Source: a virus (Duplodnaviria > Heunggongvirae > Uroviricota > Caudoviricetes). Taken from it: a stretch of 9,831 nt of DNA. This document shows, piece after piece, positions 1 to 9,831 of the stretch. Made by a program: the position numbers and the translations under genes. Location of the stretch: the IMG/VR virus record IMGVR_UViG_2602041644_000006, positions 1 to 9,831 of that record, one strand, 5' to 3'. Under the pieces are notes generated by a model, which was given only the letters and a program-made list of their open reading frames with translations, searched no databases and had not been told where the DNA came from. The stretch's first letter is position 1; the number at the start of each line of letters is the position of its first letter.

Positions 1-1314
1 CTAACCTACTGATTTTAATAAGTCTCTTGTGTCACTTTGGTGACCATGGGACATCATTGGGACATAATCTGCCAGCTTCTGATTCAGCATTGCGATCTGT
101 TCTGCATTACTGTCAGTCATCCATGCTCCGTATACATTGAATACCATCTGGGCACTTGCATGGCCCATCTGGCTGGCAATAAAGCTTGGGTTTGCTCCGG
201 CAGATAATGACCAGCACGCATAAGTGTGTCGTGACTGGTATGCTTTCCGGTGCCTGATGCCCGCACGCTTAACGGCTGTTTCCCATGAGTCGCCAATAGA
301 ATCTACCTTGTAGATAAAACCGACCTGTTTGCTTTTTCTAACCACCTGGGGGTTAAATACGAAAGTACATTCATGATTCACTGAGCGCCCATATTCACGT
401 AGTTGAACCTTGATGTGGTGCTGCTTACCCAGTCTTGTCATTTCAGCCTGATTTTTCAGGACACTGATAGCGGGCTGGATAAGATGCACAACCCTGTTTG
501 TACTTGCTTCAGTTTTAGGTAGAGTGAACTCACTGAGTTTCGTATAATTGCGCCTGATAGTAATAGTTCCTGCTTTCAGATCGATATCTTCCCAGGCCAG
601 GGAGACCAGTTCACCGTGACGCATTCCTGTGTACACAGCCAATGACCACAGGTTTTTCGTCTGCTGATGTCGGCAAGCATCTATCAGGCGAATAAATTCG
701 TCACGAGTTAGCGGATCTGGCTCTGCCCTGGCTCTTTTAAGAGGCTTAATTCCCTGGAAGGGATTTGCTTCTAAGTAACCGTGATCTGCAGCAAACTGAA
801 ACATTCCAGCGATAGTTGTCATGTAATAATTTACAGTAACGACGCTCCGTCCTTTTGCTGCTGCTTTGTTTTTCGTTGAATTCTGATACCCGGTCAGTAA
901 ATCTTTCCTGATATACAGCAATTCCTCTTTGGTTACCGATGACACCAGTCTGCTGCCTCCAATTTTCGGAACCATCGTTCTTGCAACGGATTCATAGCGA
1001 TTGAATGCATTTGCAGAGATTTCCATTCGTTTCAGATCCAGCCACTTTTCTTCAAGTTCCTTCACCGTAATTTCTTTTTTACTTACCCCAAAAGCCTGAA
1101 GGTTGGGGGAGTCAGGGAACTGTGCGGCATAATCAAAGCTTCCTGTGCGGATGGCAAAACATACCGATGTCCGCAGTTCCCCGGCGATCTTCCTGTTCTT
1201 GGCAGTGTCAGGGACACCAAGATTTTCCCTGACACGTTTACCTTTAAAATTAAACCAGATGCGTAATGTGCCGCCGTGGTTTTCGACGCCTGTTGGATAT
1301 TTGACTTTATCCAT
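1..1314 (-). CDS. int: Phage tyrosine integrase (site-specific recombinase), 437 aa
   Basis: Complete ORF: ATG at 1312-1314 preceded by a GGAGGT Shine-Dalgarno, stop (TAG) at 1-3 on the window edge. C-terminal half has the R...HxxR...Y layout of tyrosine recombinases (TGMRHGEL, RHTYACWSLSAG, FNVYGAW). Terminal position next to an excisionase-like gene fits a prophage integration module. Confidence 0.9.
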   Translation of the reverse strand: MDKVKYPTGVENHGGTLRIWFNFKGKRVRENLGVPDTAKNRKIAGELRTSVCFAIRTGSFDYAAQFPDSPNLQAFGVSKKEITVKELEEKWLDLKRMEISANAFNRYESVARTMVPKIGGSRLVSSVTKEELLYIRKDLLTGYQNSTKNKAAAKGRSVVTVNYYMTTIAGMFQFAADHGYLEANPFQGIKPLKRARAEPDPLTRDEFIRLIDACRHQQTKNLWSLAVYTGMRHGELVSLAWEDIDLKAGTITIRRNYTKLSEFTLPKTEASTNRVVHLIQPAISVLKNQAEMTRLGKQHHIKVQLREYGRSVNHECTFVFNPQVVRKSKQVGFIYKVDSIGDSWETAVKRAGIRHRKAYQSRHTYACWSLSAGANPSFIASQMGHASAQMVFNVYGAWMTDSNAEQIAMLNQKLADYVPMMSHGHQSDTRDLLKSVG

Positions 1315-1369
1315 TGATACCTCCAGACGCCCAAGAGCGATACGAGCTTACATACTTCATGGCATTAAA

Positions 1370-1606
1370 TCACCCAGGTTGTTTGTTTTTCATTGAAGCG
1401 ACCCAGGCATCTATTGCTTTTCTGTTATACATACATTCACTGGAAGGCTTTGGATTACCGTCTGGTGATACGTGAATATACTCTCTTCCAACCATCCAGC
1501 ATTCTTTCCGGGCCCGAAGAATTGTGCCTGGTTTGAGCCCGGTAATTGCGATTAGAACGCTTTCACAAACCCATTCATTGGGAGCCAGTTGAATCACATT
1601 GCCCAT
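1370..1606 (-). CDS. xis: Excisionase-like small DNA-binding protein (Xis/TorI-like), 78 aa
   Basis: Small basic ORF immediately upstream of int on the same strand. ATG at 1604-1606 has a GAGGT Shine-Dalgarno that overlaps the stop of the preceding gene. The motif WMVGREYIHV resembles the winged-helix core of lambda-type Xis. Confidence 0.55.
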   Translation of the reverse strand: MGNVIQLAPNEWVCESVLIAITGLKPGTILRARKECWMVGREYIHVSPDGNPKPSSECMYNRKAIDAWVASMKNKQPG

Positions 1607-1614
1607 GCATTACC

Positions 1615-1761
1615 TCACACAACACTCAGCCCACGGCAGTGGCACCACACTTCAAACATTCGTTTCACAATTTCACGACAGTAGAAACCGTCAACATCTC
1701 GTGTCAGGTCATAGCGATTGCCGTAACGCTGGTGGACCCATCGTTCAAATGCTTTATTCAT
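1615..1761 (-). CDS. Hypothetical small protein, 48 aa (MNKAFERWVHQRYGNRYDLTRDVDGFYCREIVKRMFEVWCHCRGLSVV)
   Basis: Not in the supplied ORF track; found by hand translation. ATG at 1759-1761 with an AGGAAG Shine-Dalgarno 6 nt upstream; TGA stop at 1615-1617 sits inside the xis ribosome-binding site, fitting translational coupling. Confidence 0.3.
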   Translation of the reverse strand: MNKAFERWVHQRYGNRYDLTRDVDGFYCREIVKRMFEVWCHCRGLSVV

Positions 1762-1764
1762 TCT

Positions 1765-2007
1765 TTACTTCCTTTTCATGGCCCGTAATTTTTTCAGATG
1801 AGCTTCCTGCTCTGTTTCTGCCAGAATTTTGCGGTACTCCTGGTGGTCAATATGTTCGAACAGGCAGTTTAACTCACCAATGCGTACCCGCCCGGATCGT
1901 CCGTCCATCCGTCGAAAGAACACTGAGTGCTCAGTGATGCGAGTAATCACCACGGGGTATCCGGCTCTGTCCGTGTATATCTGACTGCGTTGAATCAAAG
2001 CGAACAT
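1765..2007 (-). CDS. Hypothetical phage early protein, 80 aa
   Basis: The track ORF 1765..2043 starts on TTG; the internal ATG at 2005-2007 (MFALIQRSQIY...) lies 4 nt after the stop of the upstream micro-ORF and is the more likely start. Packed in the same co-directional chain. Confidence 0.4.
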   Translation of the reverse strand: MFALIQRSQIYTDRAGYPVVITRITEHSVFFRRMDGRSGRVRIGELNCLFEHIDHQEYRKILAETEQEAHLKKLRAMKRK

Positions 2008-2011
2008 GTGG

Positions 2012-2095
2012 TTATCCCCATCGACAAATCGAGAACACAACAAACGCTGCTGCGAATACCACCCCCAGAGTTACGATTGCATCACGCCAGCTCAT
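2012..2095 (-). CDS. Candidate 27-aa hydrophobic micro-protein (MSWRDAIVTLGVVFAAAFVVFSICRWG)
   Basis: Hand translation. ATG at 2093-2095 overlaps the TGA stop of the DUF551-like gene (ATGA) and uses its GGAGGTG sequence as a ribosome-binding site. The product is essentially one transmembrane helix. TAA stop at 2012-2014. Confidence 0.25.
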   Translation of the reverse strand: MSWRDAIVTLGVVFAAAFVVFSICRWG

Positions 2096-3018
2096 TGATT
2101 CACCTCCTGCGGCGGTTCTGGCAGCGGCATCCAGTGGGTTACCTCCTTGAGATACAGGTCTTCGCCACCACCGTCATCCCAAGTGGGCTTGCCATCATTA
2201 AACCAGTCGCCATATACGCCGACCTGAGTGTTGGGGATGCTTGGTGGGTAGTTGTTTTTAAAGTCAGCAGCTAACACATAGCATTGTCGCTCTCCCATTT
2301 CTGGCATTCGCTCACTACAGCTTATCCAACCATCCGGAGTTACCGGAACTTGTGGAATGGCTGTCTGCTCTCGAACGTCATTAGGCGCTATAGGTTCTGC
2401 TGCCAACTGACTGGCATATTTGTTAATGGTAACGATAAGCTCTTGCTCAGCCTCATCCAGACAATCACCGATACCTCGCCTGTCACCGTCAAAATCATCG
2501 AAATCGGCACGAATCCTGGCAACCTTCAGGATTGCGGACAACACCTCACTAGGAATTGCCGGATAGTTGGTTGACGTTTCCGCGATTTCCCGAAAATTAT
2601 TGGTTGACGAATTCTTGTTTTCCCGAAAGTTTCCGGACTGAAGCATGGCGGCGCGGCAGGCGTTCCATATTTCGGCAGCAATATCGCGCTCGCTATCGGT
2701 TAATTTGTACGTTGAAACATAGCCAGAGAGCATTTCTACGTTTTCCGGAGTTGCTTCTTCAGGCACTACCGGTGCTGGAGGGGCGGCGTAAATGCCCTCT
2801 ATCACTAAATGTTTGCGCTCAAAATCATCTGGCTCTCGATGATATACGTAACTCCAATCACCAAGGTTATCATTGCGCCTGCAACGGAAACCTATCGGCT
2901 CTGCTTCCAGCGATGCCAGAGCAATTCGTGCCAGTTCCATTTGTTCGCCACGGGTAAGTCCGTTATCAAGCGGATTTTTAATGAATAATTCGATACGTTC
3001 TTTGGTAATAGTGGTCAT
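2092..3018 (-). CDS. Phage accessory protein with a DUF551-like C-terminal domain, 308 aa
   Basis: ATG at 3016-3018 preceded by AAGGTGA. The C-terminus (GDWFNDGKPTWDDGGGEDLYLKEVTHWMPLPEPP) matches the W/P-rich signature I recall for DUF551 domains found on lambdoid early-region proteins. The N-terminal two thirds are acidic and unassigned. Confidence 0.6.
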   Translation of the reverse strand: MTTITKERIELFIKNPLDNGLTRGEQMELARIALASLEAEPIGFRCRRNDNLGDWSYVYHREPDDFERKHLVIEGIYAAPPAPVVPEEATPENVEMLSGYVSTYKLTDSERDIAAEIWNACRAAMLQSGNFRENKNSSTNNFREIAETSTNYPAIPSEVLSAILKVARIRADFDDFDGDRRGIGDCLDEAEQELIVTINKYASQLAAEPIAPNDVREQTAIPQVPVTPDGWISCSERMPEMGERQCYVLAADFKNNYPPSIPNTQVGVYGDWFNDGKPTWDDGGGEDLYLKEVTHWMPLPEPPQEVNQ

Positions 3019-3020
3019 AG

Positions 3021-3212
3021 CTATTTCACCTTAATCTCAACATTTCGCAGCTTTAGCTCTACTGGCAGGTCTGACTTTCCTGTTAATGATAATGCGAGAT
3101 TTTCTGGAGTAATGAGAGCAGTTATTGTTTTCCCCCTCGCCAGACGAATAATCATTCGTATCTCGCGATCGTCACATGCTCCCGGTCGAACAATTGATAT
3201 TTGTCCGTCCAT
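3021..3212 (-). CDS. Hypothetical small protein, 63 aa
   Basis: ATG at 3210-3212 with an AAGGAGAG Shine-Dalgarno; separated by 1 nt from the upstream stop, and its own stop is 2 nt before the next start. Confidence 0.45.
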   Translation of the reverse strand: MDGQISIVRPGACDDREIRMIIRLARGKTITALITPENLALSLTGKSDLPVELKLRNVEIKVK

Positions 3213-3213
3213 C

Positions 3214-3708
3214 TCACTCTCCTTTGATGCGAATGCCAGCGACGCGTAATGCGTGTTCTAGGTCAATCAGGTAAAGCCAACTGCCATTTTCTTTAGGTAT
3301 CATGACATGTCGCTCATCTGCATTTATCGGGTGTCCATATCGAAGGTCGTAGCGAGTCGGTAATTGAACTTCCCGCGCTTCCAGTTCAGCAATACGCTTG
3401 CACCCATCAGAGATAACTCCCTCGTAATACTCGCGCTGCTCGTTGAGTTTTGATTTTGTCTCCTCAAGCTCAACGCGCAGCTTCCCTACCGTTAGCGCAA
3501 TATCCTCGTTCTCCTGGTCGCGGCGTTTGATGTATTGCTGGTTTCTTTCCCGTTCATCCAACAATGCCAGCGCGATATCTGGCGAAAAGTGCTTCATAAA
3601 ATCGTTAAGCGCATTAATTCGCTGATCGAAAGGCATTACAGGTGCTTCACCAGCAATTTTTGTTTTTTCAGCGATTTCACGAAGCTTTTGATAATCAATC
3701 TTGCTCAC
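3214..3708 (-). CDS. Ead/Ea22-like coiled-coil phage early protein, 164 aa
   Basis: GTG start at 3706-3708 overlaps the upstream TGA (GTGA) behind an AAGGAGG Shine-Dalgarno. N-terminus MSKIDYQKLREIAEK and a long charged helical middle resemble Ea22-family proteins of lambdoid phages. Confidence 0.5.
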   Translation of the reverse strand: MSKIDYQKLREIAEKTKIAGEAPVMPFDQRINALNDFMKHFSPDIALALLDERERNQQYIKRRDQENEDIALTVGKLRVELEETKSKLNEQREYYEGVISDGCKRIAELEAREVQLPTRYDLRYGHPINADERHVMIPKENGSWLYLIDLEHALRVAGIRIKGE

Positions 3709-4118
3709 TGGTTGCCTCCTTCGCGAAGCTGTTCAGCAATACTTACGCATATCTCTGCGCCTCTAATCAGCCCCGGAACGTTCTTGTTTGGCCCAACTTC
3801 ACCATCAACAAAATCAATCATCGCGTTACGAGCCATATCCACCCCCTGCGCACGTACTTCAGCCAGGAGAGCGTCGGTAGCTGGGGTTTCCGTGAAGTTG
3901 TCCTCCCAACCGTAGTACTCCTGACGACAGAAGTTATTAAATTCCTTCTCCGACTGTTTAAGCGCCGCATTCTCCGCTGCCAGCGCCGCGCACCTGGCCT
4001 CAAGAGCGGCAACCACTTCCTGATGGTCTTTGTACTTAACGTATGAGCCGGAGATGTCATCACCTTCGGTGTTTAGCCATGCGTCATTGCAATTCACTGC
4101 GTAGGTTCTGATGCTCAT
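3705..4118 (-). CDS. Hypothetical coiled-coil phage protein, 138 aa (start at MSIRTY)
   Basis: The track ORF 3705..4238 has a junk-like N-terminal extension. The internal ATG at 4116-4118 overlaps the stop of the upstream 60-aa ORF (ATGA) and follows GGGAGAG. Contains a helical segment ALEARCAALAAENAALKQ. Confidence 0.45.
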   Translation of the reverse strand: MSIRTYAVNCNDAWLNTEGDDISGSYVKYKDHQEVVAALEARCAALAAENAALKQSEKEFNNFCRQEYYGWEDNFTETPATDALLAEVRAQGVDMARNAMIDFVDGEVGPNKNVPGLIRGAEICVSIAEQLREGGNQ

Positions 4119-4297
4119 GCTGATGCTCTCCCGCCCCTGACAGACGCCAGGCCAGTCAATAAAGTATCCGCAATGCCTACCCTCAGACGTGCGCGCAGGA
4201 TAAATGCCGTTATGACCGGCAAAATATATGCTACCCATTCATCTTGCGTTGCCTGTTCCGCCGCCTCGCGCAGTTCTTGATAGTTAATGTTGCTCAC
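4115..4297 (-). CDS. Small ORF (60 aa) with an Ea22-like N-terminus; possible truncated or frameshifted paralogue
   Basis: GTG start at 4295-4297 behind AAGGAGG, in a junction module nearly identical to the one at 3696..3720. The first ~21 residues (MSNINYQELREAAEQATQDEW) parallel the start of the 164-aa Ea22-like protein; the remainder is low-complexity. Confidence 0.3.
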   Translation of the reverse strand: MSNINYQELREAAEQATQDEWVAYILPVITAFILRARLRVGIADTLLTGLASVRGGRASA

Positions 4298-4533
4298 TGG
4301 TTGCCTCCTTTACGGATCTGCGCTGCGATGCACGAAAAAAAAGACTTTCGCGTATGACTGTTAAGAGCTGGCGCGAACGCCGCGTTAAGAACGGCGGCAT
4401 CACAGCCGTCATCGATATAGAGCGCAATTTTTTTCTCCAGGCGTGCTTTGGCTTCCTGCAACTGCATATCCCGGCACGCACGCGGGATATACTCAGCAAT
4501 TTGAGCGATAGATTTTTCGTTCTGTTTAAACAT
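4294..4533 (-). CDS. Hypothetical phage early protein, 79 aa
   Basis: ATG at 4531-4533 lies inside the end of the upstream gene (AAGCATGTTTAA) after GAGGTG. C-terminus ...QIRKGGNQ is paralogous to the end of the 138-aa protein (...QLREGGNQ). Confidence 0.45.
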   Translation of the reverse strand: MFKQNEKSIAQIAEYIPRACRDMQLQEAKARLEKKIALYIDDGCDAAVLNAAFAPALNSHTRKSFFSCIAAQIRKGGNQ

Positions 4534-4729
4534 GCTTCACCTCGATAGGCTTGATGGTATCGATCAGCAGTCGGCGGCGAGTATTTTCTGCAAAGTGGCG
4601 GCGTCCGGTTTCTTTGTGGTAAAACTCGTTTTTTCCGACGACCCACATCCGCTTTGTCTGGTGCAGTTTTTTTACCTGCGGACCGTCTCGGGTGATAACA
4701 ATTCCTGTATGAGTTTTTATCACGCTCAT
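4526..4729 (-). CDS. Hypothetical basic small protein, 67 aa
   Basis: ATG at 4727-4729 overlaps the TGA stop of the upstream gene (ATGA). Basic composition. Confidence 0.45.
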   Translation of the reverse strand: MSVIKTHTGIVITRDGPQVKKLHQTKRMWVVGKNEFYHKETGRRHFAENTRRRLLIDTIKPIEVKHV

Positions 4730-5088
4730 TTTTTATTCTTCGGTGCTTTCGGCATTACTGCCCAGTGAGTGATATTGACGTTTTCAAGGTCCCCGACCTG
4801 AAATGTCCACAGCCATTCTCCGGTTTCTTTTTGTCCCCAGGTGTACCAGAGAGAACGCCAGCCAATTAGCCAGCCTTCTCCGTTAGCATCAAATAACAGA
4901 ACACTTTCATTTGCTGGCGGCAGTTCAGCTGACACTGGTATTATTTTGTTTTCCAGTGCCGCGCATTTAGCTTCAAGCGCATCGAATTTACGTACCAGGT
5001 ACTCAGCATTTGTTTCATTCACTTTCAGATCTCGTGGTACACATTTCCCGCGAAGAAACCCTTCCATTTCGAAAACATTCATGCGCAT
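4726..5088 (-). CDS. yfdS: YfdS-like prophage protein, 120 aa
   Basis: ATG at 5086-5088 with GGAG 8 nt upstream. Length and position directly after a YfdR-like gene match my recollection of the K-12 CPS-53 yfdP-yfdQ-yfdR-yfdS order. The symbol is assigned from memory, not from an alignment. Confidence 0.55.
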   Translation of the reverse strand: MRMNVFEMEGFLRGKCVPRDLKVNETNAEYLVRKFDALEAKCAALENKIIPVSAELPPANESVLLFDANGEGWLIGWRSLWYTWGQKETGEWLWTFQVGDLENVNITHWAVMPKAPKNKK

Positions 5089-5615
5089 TTGCGTAACTCC
5101 GATAACTCGTTAAAACGTTCCATAAACATCCCGTAGGCATGGCCTGGTGACAGTGGAATAACTTTGAACATCTCTGTCGCCGGGATACCTTCCAGTACAG
5201 GCCAGAAAGAGCCATCATCAAGCCCGAGATCGCGACGTTCGGTTGCCAGCATAATGAGATCGGCATATTTCACTGGCGTGCTCATAACAGGAGGTAACCC
5301 GTATTTCTCACGGATTACGGCGTCTATTTTTTCTTCCATCCGTTTATAGTCAGGAAGAAGGCGTTTCAGTGGAGCTGGGATGTCCTGGCAATACGCTTCT
5401 GTTGCATCATGCATTAACGCTTCAAAAGCAAATTCCTGCGGCACCAGCTGGCTGCAAAGCACCGCATGTTGGGCGACGCTGTAGAAGTGAGAAAGATGAC
5501 CGGCAAAGCGACAGATATTTGAAAGGGAAACCGCGATATCGTTAATAACGATGTCATCTTTATTTATCTTGTCATAATAAAAATGCTTCCCGGAAAAAGT
5601 TTTAATAAATGACAT
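5079..5615 (-). CDS. yfdR: HD-domain phosphohydrolase, YfdR-like (5'-deoxynucleotidase family), 178 aa
   Basis: The track ORF starts on GTG at 5642; the ATG at 5613-5615 (MSFIKTF...) has a GGAGAA Shine-Dalgarno 5 nt upstream. H...HD signature is visible (AQHAVL ... LMHDATEAY). Size and neighbours fit CPS-53 YfdR. Confidence 0.7.
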   Translation of the reverse strand: MSFIKTFSGKHFYYDKINKDDIVINDIAVSLSNICRFAGHLSHFYSVAQHAVLCSQLVPQEFAFEALMHDATEAYCQDIPAPLKRLLPDYKRMEEKIDAVIREKYGLPPVMSTPVKYADLIMLATERRDLGLDDGSFWPVLEGIPATEMFKVIPLSPGHAYGMFMERFNELSELRKCA

Positions 5616-5708
5616 TTTGTTCTCCACGTATATGCGCTGCACCGCGCTGAATTTGGGTAAAAGGAAGCCCTCACCATCCGGTGATTATTGAGTTAATTAC
5701 GTTTCCAT

Positions 5709-5730
5709 AAATGCCCCCGCAGGGGCATTT
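5709..5730. other. Perfect intercistronic hairpin (9-bp stem AAATGCCCC / GGGGCATTT, 4-nt loop) between yfdQ and yfdR
   Basis: Read directly from the sequence. It sits in the 127-nt gap after the yfdQ stop, which is the only sizeable gap in the minus-strand chain. No adjacent U-tract on either strand, so it is probably not an intrinsic terminator. Confidence 0.4.
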
Positions 5731-5742
5731 GCAGTAATGAAA

Positions 5743-6567
5743 TCAGGCGGTGAAAGTACCAATAAAGGTTTCTACTTTGCTGTCTTTGAATTTCTCAACA
5801 AGCAGATCACGAAATTCGTTAGCCATATCTTCCTGCACCGCTTCCAGCTGAATAATGCGCAGAACCAGTACAGGACGATCGCCAGTGATAATGCTGAGGC
5901 GTAATTTAAACGGACGTTCTTTCAGACCTTCAAACGGAACGCATTTAAATTCAAATGCCACTGGCATAATGTCTTTGGTCTTCGCTTCGACAGATTCCAT
6001 CAGGGAGCGTTTGCCGCTGAAGTCATTATCTTCAAAATCAGCGGTCTGGTTTGCTTCAATCGTGATTTTACGGATTGCCGCAGCCGCTTTTGTTGCCTGA
6101 ATGGCGTCACCATTAGCATCAAAGCCCACAAGGTAGTCGGCCCAGTCTTCAATCCATTCTGCCAGTGATTTCTGGGAGTTACGCTCGCCGTTAACAGACA
6201 ACAGGGCAGAGAACGGTGCTGTCTTTTTCAGTTTGAGAGTGGCGGTGTTATCTGCGTGACCTGGTTCATCAATAGTACCCAGGTTAAGCACACTGACGGC
6301 ACGCATATTATCAGCATCGATAAAGCAGCGGGTGCCTTCATCTGCAAGATCTTTAGAATAACGGGTAAAGTCATCGATGCTGGCAGTGGAAAGCGCACCA
6401 CGGAAACGGAAGCGATTTAAATTAAATTTTTCCAGATCATGAATGCGGAAATTCTCAGGCAATGCCACAGCATCGGCACCAATCTTACTGATAATTTCAT
6501 TAACACCCTGAGCAGAAATAAGGGCATGGATTTGATTAATTGCGGTTGCGTCTAAGTTCTGAGACAT
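5743..6567 (-). CDS. yfdQ: YfdQ-like prophage protein (DUF2303-type), 274 aa
   Basis: ATG at 6565-6567 with a GTGAGGA Shine-Dalgarno. Length and position between YfdP-like and YfdR-like genes match CPS-53 yfdQ as I recall it. Confidence 0.7.
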
Positions 6568-6632
6568 AATAAGTCCTCACTATATTAAGATATTCAGTGA
6601 TGAGATAAATAATCAGTTAATTAAGAACGATA

Positions 6633-6995
6633 TTAATGACCTGCTGCGCGGAGTTTTCCGTCAGGTTCACCGGCAAGAGTCAGTAATTGTCCCTGGTCTT
6701 CCTGCAGAATAGTCAGGCGACCACCGCGATTGACATACATCGGCGTTTCGGTGGTGTCTTCTTCAGAAATTTTCCCGCGGTTAGTCGGGCGAACATATGA
6801 GAGTTTGTGTTTGATTTTCACACGGTTCTCATCAAACGGTTCGATTTCCAGGTTGAGCGAGACCTTACCTTTGGTTTTCGTGTTCATCACACCGGAAGCG
6901 ACTTCACTGAGAACTGCGCCGATTTTGGTTTCAAATACGCCGCCGTCCAGCTCCCCGATAAATGCCTGCACATCAGTACTGCGTTCGCTAGCCAT
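6633..6995 (-). CDS. yfdP: YfdP-like prophage protein, 120 aa (start at MASERSTDV)
   Basis: The track ORF 6633..7313 carries a junk-like in-frame extension across the GC-rich leader. The ATG at 6993-6995 has an AGGAGCAG Shine-Dalgarno and gives a 120-aa product. Confidence 0.6.
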   Translation of the reverse strand: MASERSTDVQAFIGELDGGVFETKIGAVLSEVASGVMNTKTKGKVSLNLEIEPFDENRVKIKHKLSYVRPTNRGKISEEDTTETPMYVNRGGRLTILQEDQGQLLTLAGEPDGKLRAAGH

Positions 6996-7043
6996 TTTGC
7001 TGCTCCTCATCATATCGACCCTGCAAGGTCGGTTAGTTTCTCC

Positions 7044-7132
7044 ACAAAACAGAGAAGAACACCTGCGGTGACTGCCGCCCGGATGGATTGGGTTATGAGC
7101 CCGTCGTCCGGTGATGCTCTTCTCTGTTTTGT
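7044..7132. repeat. 15-bp perfect inverted repeat (ACAAAACAGAGAAGA ... TCTTCTCTGTTTTGT) enclosing a 59-nt GC-rich insert with nested short stems
   Basis: Arms at 7044-7058 and 7118-7132 are exact reverse complements. The insert contains further complementary pairs (CCGGA/TCCGG, GCGG/CCGC). Confidence 0.6.
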
Positions 7133-7140
7133 AAAAAGGA

Positions 7141-7177
7141 CGGTACCAGCCGGAAGCAAGGGTACAAGCTGGTACCG
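7141..7177. repeat. 10-bp perfect inverted repeat (CGGTACCAGC ... GCTGGTACCG) with a 17-nt loop
   Basis: Arms at 7141-7150 and 7168-7177 are exact reverse complements, immediately next to the 15-bp inverted repeat. Confidence 0.6.
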
Positions 7178-7396
7178 CCAGGACTACACACAGCATAAAG
7201 TTGTGGTGCCGGGTGCCTCCCGGTGCCTGGCGAAGGTTGCACACCAGGCGGGTGGGTATCCACAGAAGGTCGACTGTCAGCCTCAACCTTAACCCGCGTG
7301 CGCTGAGCCGCATTCACCACAACGCTAAGGATTCTCTCTGGTTGAAAATACTTAGCTGTTATGTGCCTGCTTTTAGCCACATCAGGCGAGGTGGAC

Positions 7397-7448
7397 CTGG
7401 TTATTCCCCAACAACAAGGATTCGGTTAATCTGGTTATCCCCAACAAC
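7397..7448 (+). repeat. Two direct repeats CTGGTTAT(T)CCCCAACAAC, 34 bp apart, just upstream of the 7464 start
   Basis: Copies at 7397-7415 and 7431-7448 differ by one inserted T. A third partial CTGGTT occurs at 7338-7343. The sequence after each core diverges. Confidence 0.55.
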
Positions 7449-7463
7449 GCAAAAGGAAAAGAA

Positions 7464-7898
7464 ATGTCCGGTAATATCTACACGCTATACAAATCCCACT
7501 GTGAAAATGTTGGAAAGTATCGGGGCATTGAAATCAGTGGGGTAGTGTCATCAGTCGAAATAAGCAAAGTTGAATCAAGGGCAACATTACTTACTCTTTT
7601 GGACCTTGTCTTACATGAGCACCGGAAGAAATTCGGCACTCCCTATAATCAGTTGAATGGGAAAAAGGCTCTGGTTCACCTTATTCTGATGAAGCATCAC
7701 TGGATGCCAAAACAGATTAATGAGATGAAATTTGATGAACTTCTTCTTTCAATTCAGGATGAACTCACACTTGATAAAATAAGCGTAACCGCCCAGAAAT
7801 TTTTAGATTATCGAGACTGGAGATCACAAATTCATCACTTTGATGATTTTGACGAAAATGAATGGGATCCTAATTTGTCTGCACAATATCTAAAGTAA
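7464..7898 (+). CDS. AT-rich opposite-strand gene, 144 aa, unknown function (possible moron)
   Basis: ATG at 7464 preceded by AAAGGAAAAGAA. It is the only plus-strand gene left of cro, visibly more AT-rich than the adjacent leader, and its last 29 nt overlap the 3' end of the convergent 68-aa gene. I recognise no family for the product. Confidence 0.6.
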   Translation: MSGNIYTLYKSHCENVGKYRGIEISGVVSSVEISKVESRATLLTLLDLVLHEHRKKFGTPYNQLNGKKALVHLILMKHHWMPKQINEMKFDELLLSIQDELTLDKISVTAQKFLDYRDWRSQIHHFDDFDENEWDPNLSAQYLK

Positions 7899-8076
7899 CA
7901 TCCTGTGATAAAACCGTGATTTCCTGATCCAGTTTTTTTAAGGAGTCTATTGTTTCCTGTCGATAAGACAGCACTTCACGAAGCTGGTTTATAGCTGCCA
8001 GCTTCTTTGTCATCCACTCATAAATTTCCTCATCTGTGTAGCCAGGCGCGACGATTTTGGGTTCTGTTTTGTGCAT
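7870..8076 (-). CDS. First gene of the leftward early operon, 68 aa, unknown function
   Basis: The track ORF starts on TTG at 8091; the ATG at 8074-8076 has a GAGGAG Shine-Dalgarno 8 nt upstream. It lies downstream of the predicted PL and the boxA-like element. The N-terminus is not arginine-rich, so it is not obviously N-like. Confidence 0.5.
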   Translation of the reverse strand: MHKTEPKIVAPGYTDEEIYEWMTKKLAAINQLREVLSYRQETIDSLKKLDQEITVLSQDVTLDIVQTN

Positions 8077-8120
8077 TTCACATCTCCTCAAGTTATCAGT
8101 TACTTGTTGATGGGGACCAG

Positions 8121-8133
8121 ATTGTTAAAGAGC
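8121..8133 (-). promoter_or_regulatory. rrn-type boxA match (GCTCTTTAACAAT on the minus strand) in the PL leader
   Basis: Matches 13 consecutive bases of the E. coli rrn leader boxA (TGCTCTTTAACAATTTA) as I recall it. It sits directly 3' of a hairpin, in the boxB-then-boxA order of rrn leaders, about 45 nt upstream of the 68-aa gene start. Confidence 0.5.
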
Positions 8134-8134
8134 T

Positions 8135-8160
8135 AAGCGTCCTGTAGGGCGCTTTTTTGT
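8135..8160 (+). terminator. Intrinsic terminator on the plus strand (8-bp stem, UGUA loop, U6 tract); on the minus strand the same hairpin is weaker and has no U-tract
   Basis: AAGCGTCC-TGTA-GGGCGCTT followed by TTTTTTGTT. On the plus strand the stem includes one G-U pair; on the minus strand that position is a C-A mismatch. Positioned to stop plus-strand transcripts from the 144-aa gene before PL and cI. Confidence 0.6.
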
Positions 8161-8241
8161 TGCTAACGAATCATCCTGGACTTCATATGCCCCAGGCGGC
8201 TACTTCGTGGGCGTCCTGCCTGTTCGTTATCTTTGATATAA

Positions 8242-8270
8242 AATCTAACTTAACTTAGTTATTATGGCAA
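8242..8270 (-). promoter_or_regulatory. Candidate PL promoter (-35 TTGCCA, 17-nt spacer, -10 TAGATT) overlapped by an operator
   Basis: Read on the minus strand: TTGCCA (8265-8270), 17 nt, TAGATT (8242-8247). The operator 8245-8258 spans the spacer and -10. It lies directly downstream of the cI stop, the expected position for OL/PL. Confidence 0.4.
8245..8258. promoter_or_regulatory. OL-type operator CTAACTTAACTTAG (CTAA-N6-TTAG family)
   Basis: Same 14-bp dyad pattern as the two sites between cI and cro. Extra CTTAG half-site-like motifs occur at 8281-8294 and 8303-8311. Confidence 0.5.
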
Positions 8271-8323
8271 GAGAAAACACCAAACTTTTCTTAGTTCGGT
8301 GCCTTAGTTAGAGAAGAGAGGTC

Positions 8324-8950
8324 TTAGAGTTCGTATTGAACTCCTTTGACTACACCAATGATAAGGCAATTACCATTGATAGGGATGTTGGGATACCGAG
8401 GATTTAATGGCACTAAAAACTTTTGAGGGCCATCGATGACTAATTTTTTTACTGTAGCTTCGTTTGTTCCATCAAGTCGAGCGATGACTATTTTTCCATG
8501 ACGAGGTTCTGCATCTGGATCTACAATCACTGTTGCGCCTTCTGGTATTGTTGGGAGGCCATTAGGGTTAGTCATGGAGTCACCTTTAACCTCTAATGCA
8601 AATGAGTTATCACCAATCTTTAATGATGTATCTACCCACTTGTCCACTTCACTAAACACTTCTGCTGCCCTGCACTCAGTAAACTGCCCAGCCTGAACCC
8701 ACGATATTACAGGAACTCTGCGCATGTTTGTGACGAGTTTGCCTTCAAACTCAGCACCATAAAGAATGTAATCTATTGACGTATTGAAGAACTTCGCTAA
8801 TTTCGAAAGTGCCTCCCCACCAGGGGTATTGATGTCTTTCTCCCAGTACCCCACAGCAACGTCGCTTACTCCACAAAATTTACCCAATTCTTTCTGGGAC
8901 GTTCCGGTAACTCTTCTCAGAGCTTTTATACGCTGACCAACCGTTTCCAT
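8324..8950 (-). CDS. cI: CI-type prophage repressor (HTH plus LexA-like S24 autopeptidase domain), 208 aa
   Basis: N-terminal helix-turn-helix (QKELGKFCGVSDVAVGYWEKD), an Ala-Gly cleavage-site candidate (VQAGQF), and the Ser/Lys dyad context (GDSMTNP ... TVKKLV). Divergent from a cro-like gene across an operator-rich 97-bp spacer. Confidence 0.9.
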   Translation of the reverse strand: METVGQRIKALRRVTGTSQKELGKFCGVSDVAVGYWEKDINTPGGEALSKLAKFFNTSIDYILYGAEFEGKLVTNMRRVPVISWVQAGQFTECRAAEVFSEVDKWVDTSLKIGDNSFALEVKGDSMTNPNGLPTIPEGATVIVDPDAEPRHGKIVIARLDGTNEATVKKLVIDGPQKFLVPLNPRYPNIPINGNCLIIGVVKGVQYEL

Positions 8951-8972
8951 AGGAGCACCATTTCTTGAATTG

Positions 8973-8986
8973 CTAAGTAATCTTAG
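8973..8986. promoter_or_regulatory. OR-type operator CTAAGTAATCTTAG (perfect CTAAG/CTTAG dyad)
   Basis: 14-bp palindrome in the cI-cro spacer, just upstream of the predicted PR -35. Confidence 0.55.
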
Positions 8987-8992
8987 TTTTTA

Positions 8993-9021
8993 TTGACCAA
9001 AGATAGATTTGTAATTAGCAT
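8993..9021 (+). promoter_or_regulatory. Candidate PR promoter (-35 TTGACC, 17-nt spacer, -10 TAGCAT)
   Basis: TTGACC at 8993-8998 and TAGCAT at 9016-9021, flanked by operators, about 27 nt upstream of the cro start. Confidence 0.45.
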
Positions 9022-9035
9022 CTAACAAAACTTAG
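9022..9035. promoter_or_regulatory. OR-type operator CTAACAAAACTTAG
   Basis: Second CTAA-N6-TTAG site, centred 49 bp from the first and directly after the PR -10, where bound repressor would block PR. Confidence 0.55.
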
Positions 9036-9047
9036 TTTGGAGGGCGT

Positions 9048-9248
9048 ATGACAACTGACGATATCGAAAGCTACTTCGGCAGTATTGAGAAAGTTGCTGC
9101 TTTTTTCGGCATAACAACTGAAGCCGTTTATCAGTGGCGAAACCGTCCGGGCCAGTTAATTCCAAAAGGACGTGCAGCAGAAGCTGCATATAGAACTTGC
9201 GGACGGTTGCCATTTAAACCTGAGCTTTATGAAAAATCTAATGGATAA
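9048..9248 (+). CDS. cro: Cro-like small HTH regulator, 66 aa
   Basis: ATG at 9048 with a GGAGGG Shine-Dalgarno. Divergent from cI, with a helix-turn-helix-like segment (IEKVAAFFGITTEAVYQWRNR). Confidence 0.75.
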   Translation: MTTDDIESYFGSIEKVAAFFGITTEAVYQWRNRPGQLIPKGRAAEAAYRTCGRLPFKPELYEKSNG

Positions 9249-9831
9249 ATCGATTAACAGAAACCACAGAACGATGAGGCTAACCGTGGGTAAGCATCAC
9301 TGGAAAGTAGAAAAACAGCCTGAGTGGTACGTGAAAGCTGTCAGAAAAACTATCGCAGCGTTGCCGGGTGGTTACGCTGAAGCAGCTGACTGGCTGGATG
9401 TAACAGAAAACGCATTATTTAACCGCCTTCGTGCCGATGGCGATCAGATTTTCCCGCTGGGATGGGCAATGATTTTGCAACGTGCTGGTGGAACTCACTT
9501 CATTGCTGACGCTGTGGCGCAGTCTGCAAATGGCGTCTTTGTGTCTCTTCCTGACGTCGAGGATGTGGACAACGCCGATATTAACCAGCGCCTGCTGGAA
9601 GTCATTGAACAGATTGGCAGTTATTCCAGACAGATTCGTTCGGCAATCGAAGACGGTGTGGTGGAACCGCATGAGAAGACAGCAATTAACGAAAAAATGG
9701 TGGAAAGTACGTGTCGAACGTGTAGGTATCCCGATGTTAACAGCCATCCCCCTACTGACATTGCCGCAATTTATTATGCTGCAATACGTCAAAGGGAAAG
9801 CGGAAAGTTGGCCTGGACTGTCATTGTATGA
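9241..9831 (+). CDS. CII-like / YdaT-like regulatory protein downstream of cro (start uncertain)
   Basis: Long ORF right after cro ending in TGA at 9829-9831. In-frame starts are possible at 9172 (inside cro), 9229, 9241 (ATG overlapping the cro stop) and GTG 9286 (with GAGG upstream). Family assignment is by position and general character only. Confidence 0.55.

Follow-up and report, generated by a model that had tools for sequence, protein, structure and literature searches.

A candidate composite small-RNA unit and a covarying Y-shaped hairpin in the early-left leader of a lambdoid prophage

Introduction

The 9831-nt stretch of viral DNA held as positions 1 to 9831 of IMG/VR record IMGVR_UViG_2602041644_000006 (Caudoviricetes), referred to here as the window, carries between yfdP and an oppositely oriented gene a GC-rich segment (6996–7463) with two long inverted repeats. 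The question raised by this locus is what these repeats represent. A preliminary description made from the sequence letters had left open a structured non-coding RNA, an RNase III-processed leader of the yfdP-QRS block, and a protein-binding or recombination site at a module boundary.

Results

Both inverted repeats belong to a minus-strand RNA

The two inverted repeats are real, and they are sensible only as RNA of the minus strand. Comparison of sequences and structures indicated a composite small RNA (sRNA) unit of approximately 220 nt (7353..7130), consisting of a core of the STnc100/PasD type, a 14-nt block of RprA and a DicF-like terminator, and followed by a Y-shaped element. Sequence, comparative structure and synteny all identified the segment as a non-coding RNA structure on the minus strand.

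The repeats had been located correctly: the perfect 15-bp repeat has its arms at 7044–7058 and 7118–7132 with 59 nt between them, and the perfect 10-bp repeat has its arms at 7141–7150 and 7168–7177 around a 17-nt loop. The assertion that such stems are unlikely by chance held for the longer repeat, which was equalled in none of 300 window shuffles (spacer up to 100 nt), whereas the 10-bp repeat was only marginal, with two observed against a shuffle mean of 0.28 per window and 5.7 % of shuffles reaching two; its validation came instead from the comparative data below. The statement that terminator-like U-tracts are lacking was true of the plus strand only, as the 10-bp stem is followed on the minus strand by C-UUUUU (7138..7133). 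The locus had also been judged not to be a complete retron, in agreement with the lack of a reverse transcriptase among the annotated neighbours and of any retron family in the Rfam scans.

A core of the STnc100/PasD type

STnc100 is a prophage sRNA, and a 2026 preprint describes it as structural kin of PasD1 and PasD2, two Hfq-bound sRNAs of enteropathogenic E. coli (EPEC). At the curated gathering scores (47 bits for STnc100, 48 for DicF and 70 for RprA) Rfam gave no match in the whole window. A permissive scan of positions 6900–7560 gave one strong match, to STnc100 (RF02076) on the minus strand from 7353 to 7130 (42.4 bits, E = 8e-8), and the alignment extended over the full model (1–206). 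A 236-nt minus-strand RNA was more stable than its shuffles (fold z = −3.84) and formed a junction closed by GUUGUGGUG/CACCACAAC.

The RF02076 match, the fold and a consensus of 22 cores, in which PL-type and canonical cores were taken together, placed the multi-helix core at 7200..7323 on the minus strand. The cmscan alignment, the minimum free energy (MFE) fold and the consensus fold all contained the STnc100 closing helix, 5′ hairpin and terminal CCGGGAGGCACCCGG hairpin. The closing helix P1 pairs 7323..7315 (GUUGUGGUG) with 7208..7200 (CACCACAAC); the 5′ hairpin occupies 7314..7296 and is followed by variable inner hairpins, and the terminal hairpin CCGGGAGGCACCCGG occupies 7223..7209. Across the 22 cores, double changes were seen at three of seven P1 pairs, three pairs of the 5′ hairpin were swapped between GC and CG when the PL type was compared with canonical STnc100, and the terminal hairpin showed a change between G-C and U-A. 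The core of the window is therefore structurally homologous to STnc100 and has diverged from it through compensatory changes. Weaker, sub-threshold STnc100 matches were found at the same relative position in ST64B, e14, phiES15 and sal3, and the core 21-mer ACCGGGAGGCACCCGGCACCA occurred exactly in at least 119 IMG/VR stretches representing 52 sequence clusters.

The unit has in common with STnc100/PasD the closing helix, the 5′ hairpin loop CUnnGCG, the invariant CACCGGGAGGCACCCGGCACCA, the 3′ terminator and the full-length model alignment, and it is likewise prophage-borne and very common. It differs from canonical STnc100 in its compensatorily swapped 5′ hairpin stem and sub-gathering score, in having an RprA-type linker and no core-adjacent promoter, and in its position in a PL leader rather than downstream of stx2B or near Q or holin genes; the canonical copy of phage 933W, for example, lies in the late operon between stx2B and a sialate-esterase gene.

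A further hairpin, P0 (GCUAAG...CUUAGC; 7324..7356, minus strand, from the MFE fold), abuts the core. P0 is short in the window and much longer in relatives, and hairpins of different sequence were found at the same place in ST64B, phiES15, LLS, sal3, mEp460 and Qin. In 118970_sal3 (L009, approximately 2860–2950) and phiNP (L007, approximately 2830–2900) the minus-strand P0 was expanded and contained the tRNA T-arm-like sequences CUGGUUCGAUUCCAG and GUCCGUUCAAUUCGGAC.

Tandem pairs of STnc100-type cores, spaced by about 484 nt, or a second conserved domain (...CCUGGUAAAUCGGUAGCUCGGACUAUUAGGUGC...) between core and terminator, were seen in contigs among L016, L027, L045, L063 and L084, and L016, L029, L031, L043 and L117. 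The second domain suggests that longer composite RNAs may exist.

An RprA-type linker

Between the core and the terminator lies a single-stranded linker, UGCUGUGUGUAGUC (7182..7195, minus strand), which a full-text sequence search revealed to be part of E. coli RprA (sequences from PMC5606850 and PMC7311995). Pairwise alignments and the Rfam RprA consensus showed it to be identical to the invariant block of RprA at 14 of 14 nt (7195..7182). The window shared exactly 14 of the 22 nt of a longer RprA block, AUUGCUGUGUGUAGUCUUUGCC, which precedes the RprA terminator, and relatives shared the whole block and the terminator; in relatives such as LLS and L231 the similarity extended over up to 46 nt (95.7 % identity) of RprA nt 59–104, terminator included. 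The linker 15-mer UUGCUGUGUGUAGUC was found in at least 120 further IMG/VR stretches.

The 14 identical nt stand before the terminator in the unit, as the invariant block does in RprA. In other respects the unit is unlike RprA (RF00034), a core-genome Hfq-dependent sRNA: it lacks RprA nt 1–58, which form the stem-loops and the rpoS/hdeD pairing region, and its terminator hairpin, locus and regulation are all different. RprA nt 1–58 had no match in approximately 350 phage loci. The RprA covariance model gave no match in the window at E values up to 10, and phiES15 scored 41 bits (gathering score 70). A literature search for prophage RprA-like RNAs returned none. According to the literature the invariant block is not the known hdeD seed of RprA; in the unit it may act as a handle for Hfq or an RNase.

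The idea that RprA is an internally deleted STnc100 was dropped: nt 30–50 resembled the 5′ strand of canonical STnc100 weakly (z = 1.9), the STnc100 model had no match at the rprA locus, and the 3′ module alone was common to both. The 3′ module of RprA may be of phage origin, as hinted by the restriction of its similarity with phage leaders to the 3′ half and by its ydiL neighbour. In K-12, rprA lies directly upstream of ydiL (L352, 1702–2301), which belongs to Pfam Aca2_YdiL, a family of anti-CRISPR-associated phage-type helix-turn-helix regulators. After the RprA-type terminator, nine loci (L233, L157, L167, L144, L154, L164, L168, L186 and L156) had arrays of GGAAAGACC / GACCAGC repeats and not a long hairpin.

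An intrinsic terminator with a DicF-like hairpin

The 10-bp repeat is contained in a 12-pair stem on the minus strand (7179–7168 paired with 7150–7139; GGCGGUACCAGC / GCUGGUACCGUC), which with its 17-nt loop and the following C-U5 constitutes an intrinsic terminator (7133..7179). The run of five U residues (7137–7133) exists on the minus strand only. In the cmscan alignment the 10-bp repeat serves as the terminator hairpin of the STnc100 family, the Rho-independent terminator of STnc100 thus being present. A simple terminator scan missed this site because the 17-nt loop exceeds the limit of 8 nt set for that scan.

Among 91 distinct relatives, 85 had a terminator after the same linker, at most about 2 nt away, and these comprised 58 different hairpin sequences with constant stem geometry and U-tract. 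That 58 differing hairpins share the position relative to the linker is strong evidence that hairpin and U-tract form a functional terminator.

A covarying Y-shaped element

Directly after the U-tract begins a Y-shaped element with a three-way junction (7044..7132, minus strand; fold z = −5.99), for which there is no Rfam family. Its basal stem (7132–7113 paired with 7063–7044) contains the 15-bp repeat and comprises an unbroken run of 20 pairs, G·U and U·G among them, and up to 24–28 pairs in the MFE fold; it is topped by a conserved hairpin A (CCGGACGACGGGCUCAUAACCCAAUCCAUCCGG, 7111..7079) and a variable hairpin B (7078..7065). All 55 distinct variants collected by means of hairpin A had the same fold, some with an insertion of 25–40 nt in hairpin B.

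When 29 variants were aligned, 94.8 % of the cells of the basal stem were paired and six of the 20 pairs changed on both sides; one pair, for example, was G-C in 18 sequences and C-G in 11, and another was C-G in 16 and A-U in seven. Covariation was 0.154, compared with 0.090 in shuffles (none of 500 reached the observed value) and 0.03–0.06 with slid partners. One basal pair was U·G in 26 of the 29 sequences and another was G·U in five; read from the plus strand, or as DNA, these positions would be mismatched (A·C and C·A). Since U·G and G·U pairs exist only in minus-strand RNA, the DNA repeat is perfect over just 15 bp, and the wobble pairs assign the Y structure to the minus-strand RNA.

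Hairpins processed by RNase III are known in phage early transcripts, as in the lambda N leader and the intercistronic sites of T7. The basal stem has the approximately two helical turns (at least 20 bp of near-unbroken double-stranded RNA) expected of an RNase III site and, like those hairpins, separates an upstream RNA from the first cistron within a leader, so that it is likely to be cut by this enzyme. It has no sequence kinship with the lambda N and T7 sites and differs from them in its conserved three-way junction.

At the same position, long hairpins of unrelated sequence were found in L097, L076, L210 and L227, and Qin-type loci had a second STnc100-like core there. Because unrelated structures occupy this position in other phages, a stable structure as such appears to be the selected feature. 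Many of these long hairpins are followed, ahead of the ribosome-binding site, by a motif of the GGAGA type, which is GUGGAGAAAC in the window, and by a small hairpin. In the window the remainder of the yfdP 5′ untranslated region (6993..7043, minus strand) consists of the conserved GGAGAAAC (7043..7036), a small hairpin (7031..7016), the Shine-Dalgarno sequence GAGGAG (7008..7003) and the ATG start codon (6995..6993); the small hairpin had another sequence but the same pairing in ST64B, LLS and phiNP.

The architecture of the dicBF region of Qin

DicF (RF00039) was the third family to which the unit showed similarity. The hairpin of the window aligned to that of DicF with z = 4.2 and the e14 hairpin with z = 8.1, and the DicF model scored 15.9 bits in the window, 28.5 in the e14 homologue and 76.7 in bona fide DicF (gathering score 48). 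The single-stranded 5′ pairing sequence of DicF, UUUCUGGUGACGUUU, is absent from the window, with CUUUAUGCUGUGUGUAGUCCU in its place. L215-type loci combined an RprA-type linker with a near-exact DicF hairpin and Qin-type downstream sequence.

In the Qin prophage of K-12 the leftward order is dicA, ydfA, ydfB, ydfC, about 570 nt of non-coding sequence and dicB. The non-coding part contains a long hairpin, a core variant (GGUUGUGGCAACC...GCUGCAACG), DicF and a second STnc100-like core (RF02076, 34.4 bits, E = 2e-5), which fills the dicF-dicB interval up to the start of dicB (L350, 1532–1741 and approximately 1800–1930, minus strand). As judged from the sequences, the architecture of the window is that of ydfABC-dicF-dicB. 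In both, the unit is in a leftward operon run from a promoter beside a cI/DicA-type repressor gene, upstream of the first early protein genes, and consists of an upstream domain with structure, a short unpaired stretch, a GGCGGUAYCAG... hairpin and U5, with a stable structure before the first protein gene. The differences are that the window has UGCUGUGUGUAGUC where DicF has UUUCUGGUGACGUUU, that the hairpin loops differ, and that the downstream element is the Y-hairpin with yfdP in the window and an STnc100-like core with dicB in Qin.

Published work citing Faubladier et al. (1990) describes DicF as arising from the polycistronic dicBp transcript, a 190-nt form owing its 5′ end to RNase III and a 53-nt form to RNase E, and reports that an internal promoter was not found. 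By arithmetic, the mapped RNase III cut for the 190-nt form falls some 137 nt upstream of DicF, at or beside the long Qin hairpin. The 190-nt form corresponds to core plus DicF, the equivalent of unit 7353..7130. In Table S1 of Gordon et al., an RNase III-dependent change of coverage labelled ‘dicF-dicB’ is given for K-12 at 1649470, which by arithmetic from the Qin locus is approximately 36 nt downstream of DicF, the same relative place as the long stem of the window. The part of the PMC5371410 supplement that was consulted had no entry for ymfH, xisE or ymfI, and Reg-Seq gives just one start site upstream of ymfH, which was irreproducible.

Locus, distribution and upstream elements

The window covers the early region of an SfIV/SfV/e14/ST64B-type lambdoid prophage. 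According to the annotation of an identical copy in E. coli WP2-S18-ESBL-07, yfdR (5079–5642), yfdQ (5743–6567) and yfdP (6633–6995) lie on the minus strand, and the neighbour on the other side of the segment is an ECs1072-family gene on the plus strand (7464–7898). Further on are a small ORF of 68 aa (7870–8076, minus strand) and an XRE/cI-type repressor gene (8324–8950, minus strand) facing a cro-like gene. Pfam had no family for yfdP, the ECs1072-family gene or the 68-aa ORF.

The segment matched 2782 of 5426 complete E. coli genomes, in 1626 of which at least 80 % of it was covered, and 74 phage records. The homologous RNA was always on the leftward strand in ST64B, phiNP, LLS, mEp460, phiES15, 118970_sal3 and K-12 e14. 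In every relative examined (synteny of the window, eight relatives and Qin) it was positioned between the cI-type repressor/PL and the first early-left gene, which was yfdP-like in most relatives, kil in phiES15 and xisE in e14. In ST64B, phiNP and LLS no ORF is annotated from the repressor to the first leftward gene, and the RNA belongs to a non-coding leader of 630–990 nt that starts at a PL-type promoter. Gene order and sequence thus identify the segment as the probable minus-strand leader of the early-left operon, the order being cI-like repressor, PL-type promoter, leader, and yfdP-yfdQ-yfdR onward. On the plus strand of ST64B (L002, 5232–5308), in or beside sb41 of the rightward operon, there was an above-threshold Rfam match to IsrK (64.3 bits).

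A promoter scan found a PL-type candidate, TTGCCA-17-TAGATT (8270..8242, minus strand), just downstream of the cI-like gene, and homologous promoter and operator sequence was present in LLS; leftward transcripts across the segment probably originate at this candidate. The scan found no promoter-like site within 6996–7463 on either strand. Sigma-70-like sites (at least 9/12) directly upstream of the closing helix were present in 22 of 84 canonical contexts, compared with none of 25 PL-type contexts, and the best core-adjacent match in the window was 6/12.

The 5′ edge of the unit is marked by a motif, CCACCUCGCCUGAUGUGGCUAAAAGCAGGCACAUAAC (7358..7394, minus strand), which has the same place in e14, phiES15 and sal3 and lies directly after PL in LLS. 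It can be drawn as an H-type pseudoknot with CCAC/GUGG interleaved with GCCUG/CAGGC; all pairs are invariant, so covariation is absent. Farther upstream, after a hairpin (8154..8135) and before the 68-aa ORF, the minus strand carries a perfect rrn-type boxA, GCUCUUUAACAA (8133..8122). This 12-mer has a chance expectation of 0.07 per window and was present in 31 of 352 loci, and in the five loci compared (L171, L191, L221, L228 and L237) it was upstream of the sRNA unit on the same strand. The boxA suggests Nus-dependent antitermination of the early-left operon.

Directly after the PL-type promoter, at 8167–8226 on the minus strand, is an element of about 60 nt, GAACAGGCAGGACGCCCACGAAGUAGCCGCCUGGGGCAUAUGAAGUCCAGGAUGAUUCG, that was conserved across 51 phage records, among them Salmonella, Klebsiella, Yersinia, Pantoea, Pectobacterium, T5-like Providencia phages and Aeromonas. 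It had no Rfam match and no stable predicted fold and was not found in HK022 or HK639; with put RNAs it shared only the short motifs CGAAC..GGC and CAGGAUGA. Direct repeats, (C)TGGTTAT(T)CCCCAACAAC, occur 34 bp apart at 7390–7408 and 7424–7442, just upstream of the ribosome-binding site of the ECs1072-family gene. They could bind a regulator, or could have arisen by duplication at the border of the inserted plus-strand gene.

Discussion

The best explanation of the segment as a whole, which we hold to be fairly probable, is a minus-strand PL leader that carries an sRNA unit of the DicF type and a Y-shaped stem cut by RNase III. By analogy with DicF, relief of repression would let leftward transcription into the unit. 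An sRNA would result where polymerases stop at the terminator (7133–7137); its 5′ end would arise by processing, as with RNase III and RNase E for DicF, and it would then act in trans with Hfq. Polymerases that read through, possibly assisted by the upstream boxA, would produce an operon mRNA carrying the Y-hairpin; cleavage of its long stem by RNase III would detach the sRNA and set the 5′ end and the stability of the yfdP mRNA. The earlier suggestion of an RNase III-processed leader of the yfdP-QRS block is therefore plausible as a reading of the large hairpin.

Several observations weigh against this explanation. All three family scores fall short, the window reaching 42.4 bits with STnc100 (gathering score 47), 15.9 with DicF (48) and no match at all with RprA, and the U-tract has only five U residues. 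As the 5′ pairing sequence of DicF is replaced, the targets of DicF cannot be assumed to apply; duplexes with ftsZ had energies no better than those of shuffled sRNAs, and no DicF-like targeting of ftsZ is claimed. Since P0 is short here, the cut by RNase III that generates the 190-nt form of DicF may have no counterpart, and the RNase III signal in the K-12 dicF-dicB interval consists of few reads and lies on the STnc100-like core rather than on a Y-hairpin. Transcription from PL must cross the oppositely oriented gene at 7464–7898, and as about a quarter of canonical STnc100 loci have a promoter of their own, a weak undetected one may exist here. The support for the window itself is at the sequence and comparative level.

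The alternative that survives best, although unlikely, is a stand-alone sRNA gene expressed in the lysogen from its own promoter within 7354–7463 and ending at the terminator, the long hairpin then belonging to a separate yfdP transcript. Many canonical members indeed have a strong sigma-70 promoter, TTGACA-17/18-TAAATT, with the start right at the closing helix; PasD sRNAs are abundant and Hfq-bound in EPEC lysogens; and the unit is preceded by the conserved motif at 7358–7394 and by direct repeats. The promoter scans gave no such site here or in any of the PL-type contexts, however, and the upstream motif stands directly after PL in LLS, while the leaders of ST64B and phiNP are non-coding and continuous from PL. 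DicF, according to the published work cited above, likewise has no internal promoter.

It is also improbable that the core is primarily a cis-acting leader that senses a factor or acts on RNA polymerase and so sets read-through of the terminator into yfdPQR, the released RNA being a by-product. Such a role would agree with the way the core always immediately precedes a terminator at the start of phage operons whose transcription has to get past terminators (in the PL leader of the window, behind stx2B in 933W, and immediately before holin in some IMG/VR contigs), with its strong conservation amid variable surroundings, and with the lack of an N-like gene between cI and yfdP in these phages. 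Yet no alternative antiterminator pairing with the terminator arms was found, phages with canonical copies also carry Q, and the relatives that have both promoter and terminator resemble ordinary sRNA genes, PasD binding Hfq and mRNAs in RIL-seq (ligation and sequencing of interacting RNAs). An antiterminator of the HK022 put type, defined as a two-stem element of about 70 nt related to putL/putR and located just downstream of PL or PR, was rejected: comparison by eye, made with neither alignment nor model, showed no resemblance between putL/putR and 6996–7463, and the element is about 900 nt from the PL candidate.

That the palindromes act in DNA, as protein-binding, cruciform or recombination sites at a mosaic boundary, is very doubtful. 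BLAST breakpoints do occur at 7180, 7394 and 7448, and block 6996–7180 is joined to other upstream sequences in mEp460, cdtI and Stx2c phages. The breakpoints flank the stems, however, that at 7180 lying immediately upstream (in transcript sense) of the terminator stem and not inside it; the terminator is represented by 58 sequences with one geometry and a U-tract; and the changes that preserve pairing are compensatory or of the G·U/U·G kind, mismatched on the other strand and in DNA. The least credible reading is a protein, either a YmfH-like product, ymfH being annotated over the homologous e14 segment in K-12, or an N-terminal extension of YfdP (ORF 6633–7313), for which there are a 226-aa open frame reaching 106 codons upstream of yfdP and a longer YfdP in one phage record, because PGAP marks the overlapping ORF as frameshifted, YmfH similarity is divided among two to three frames in all homologues, the window differs from ST64B by indels of 1, 2 and 19 nt, homologues start yfdP at an ATG preceded by GAGGAG, and the 226-aa ORF spans a terminator and hairpins whose length differences are not multiples of three. 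The stop-free extension looks like an artefact of GC-rich structured RNA, and the preliminary description was right in recognizing no convincing ORF.

Its proposal of a structured non-coding RNA likewise stood, with the qualification that the RNA is on the minus strand and is related to described families through its STnc100/PasD core, RprA block and DicF-like terminator. A protein-binding or recombination site was disfavoured for the stems, as their compensatory and wobble changes work only in minus-strand RNA. The unit is a member-like variant of known prophage sRNA loci, on the strand opposite to the first reading. In the literature searched, there appears to be no prior description of a single unit that combines STnc100, RprA and DicF modules as a mosaic, of K-12 dicF being flanked by STnc100-like cores, or of the covarying Y-shaped leader element.

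These results point to an unrecognized sRNA locus of the DicF type in SfIV/SfV/e14/ST64B-like prophages, correct the annotation of a hypothetical or frameshifted protein (ymfH in K-12) to an RNA, and tie together four separately curated sRNA families, STnc100, PasD, DicF and RprA. A wider proposal, offered only tentatively and more likely wrong than right in its full extent, is that DicF, STnc100/PasD and the 3′ half of RprA are interchangeable modules of one mosaic family of lambdoid leader RNAs; that the RprA block and terminator are phage-derived or phage-copied; that induced prophages in about half of E. coli genomes release an sRNA with an RprA-type Hfq/RNase handle; and that the Y-shaped RNase III site couples this release to early-left expression. 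The Y-hairpin occupies a site at which processing would link production of the sRNA to the expression of early genes, and the RprA block raises the question of whether the RprA/Hfq circuitry of the host is disturbed or borrowed by induced prophages. If the proposal is true, the prophage sRNA could compete with RprA or mimic it.

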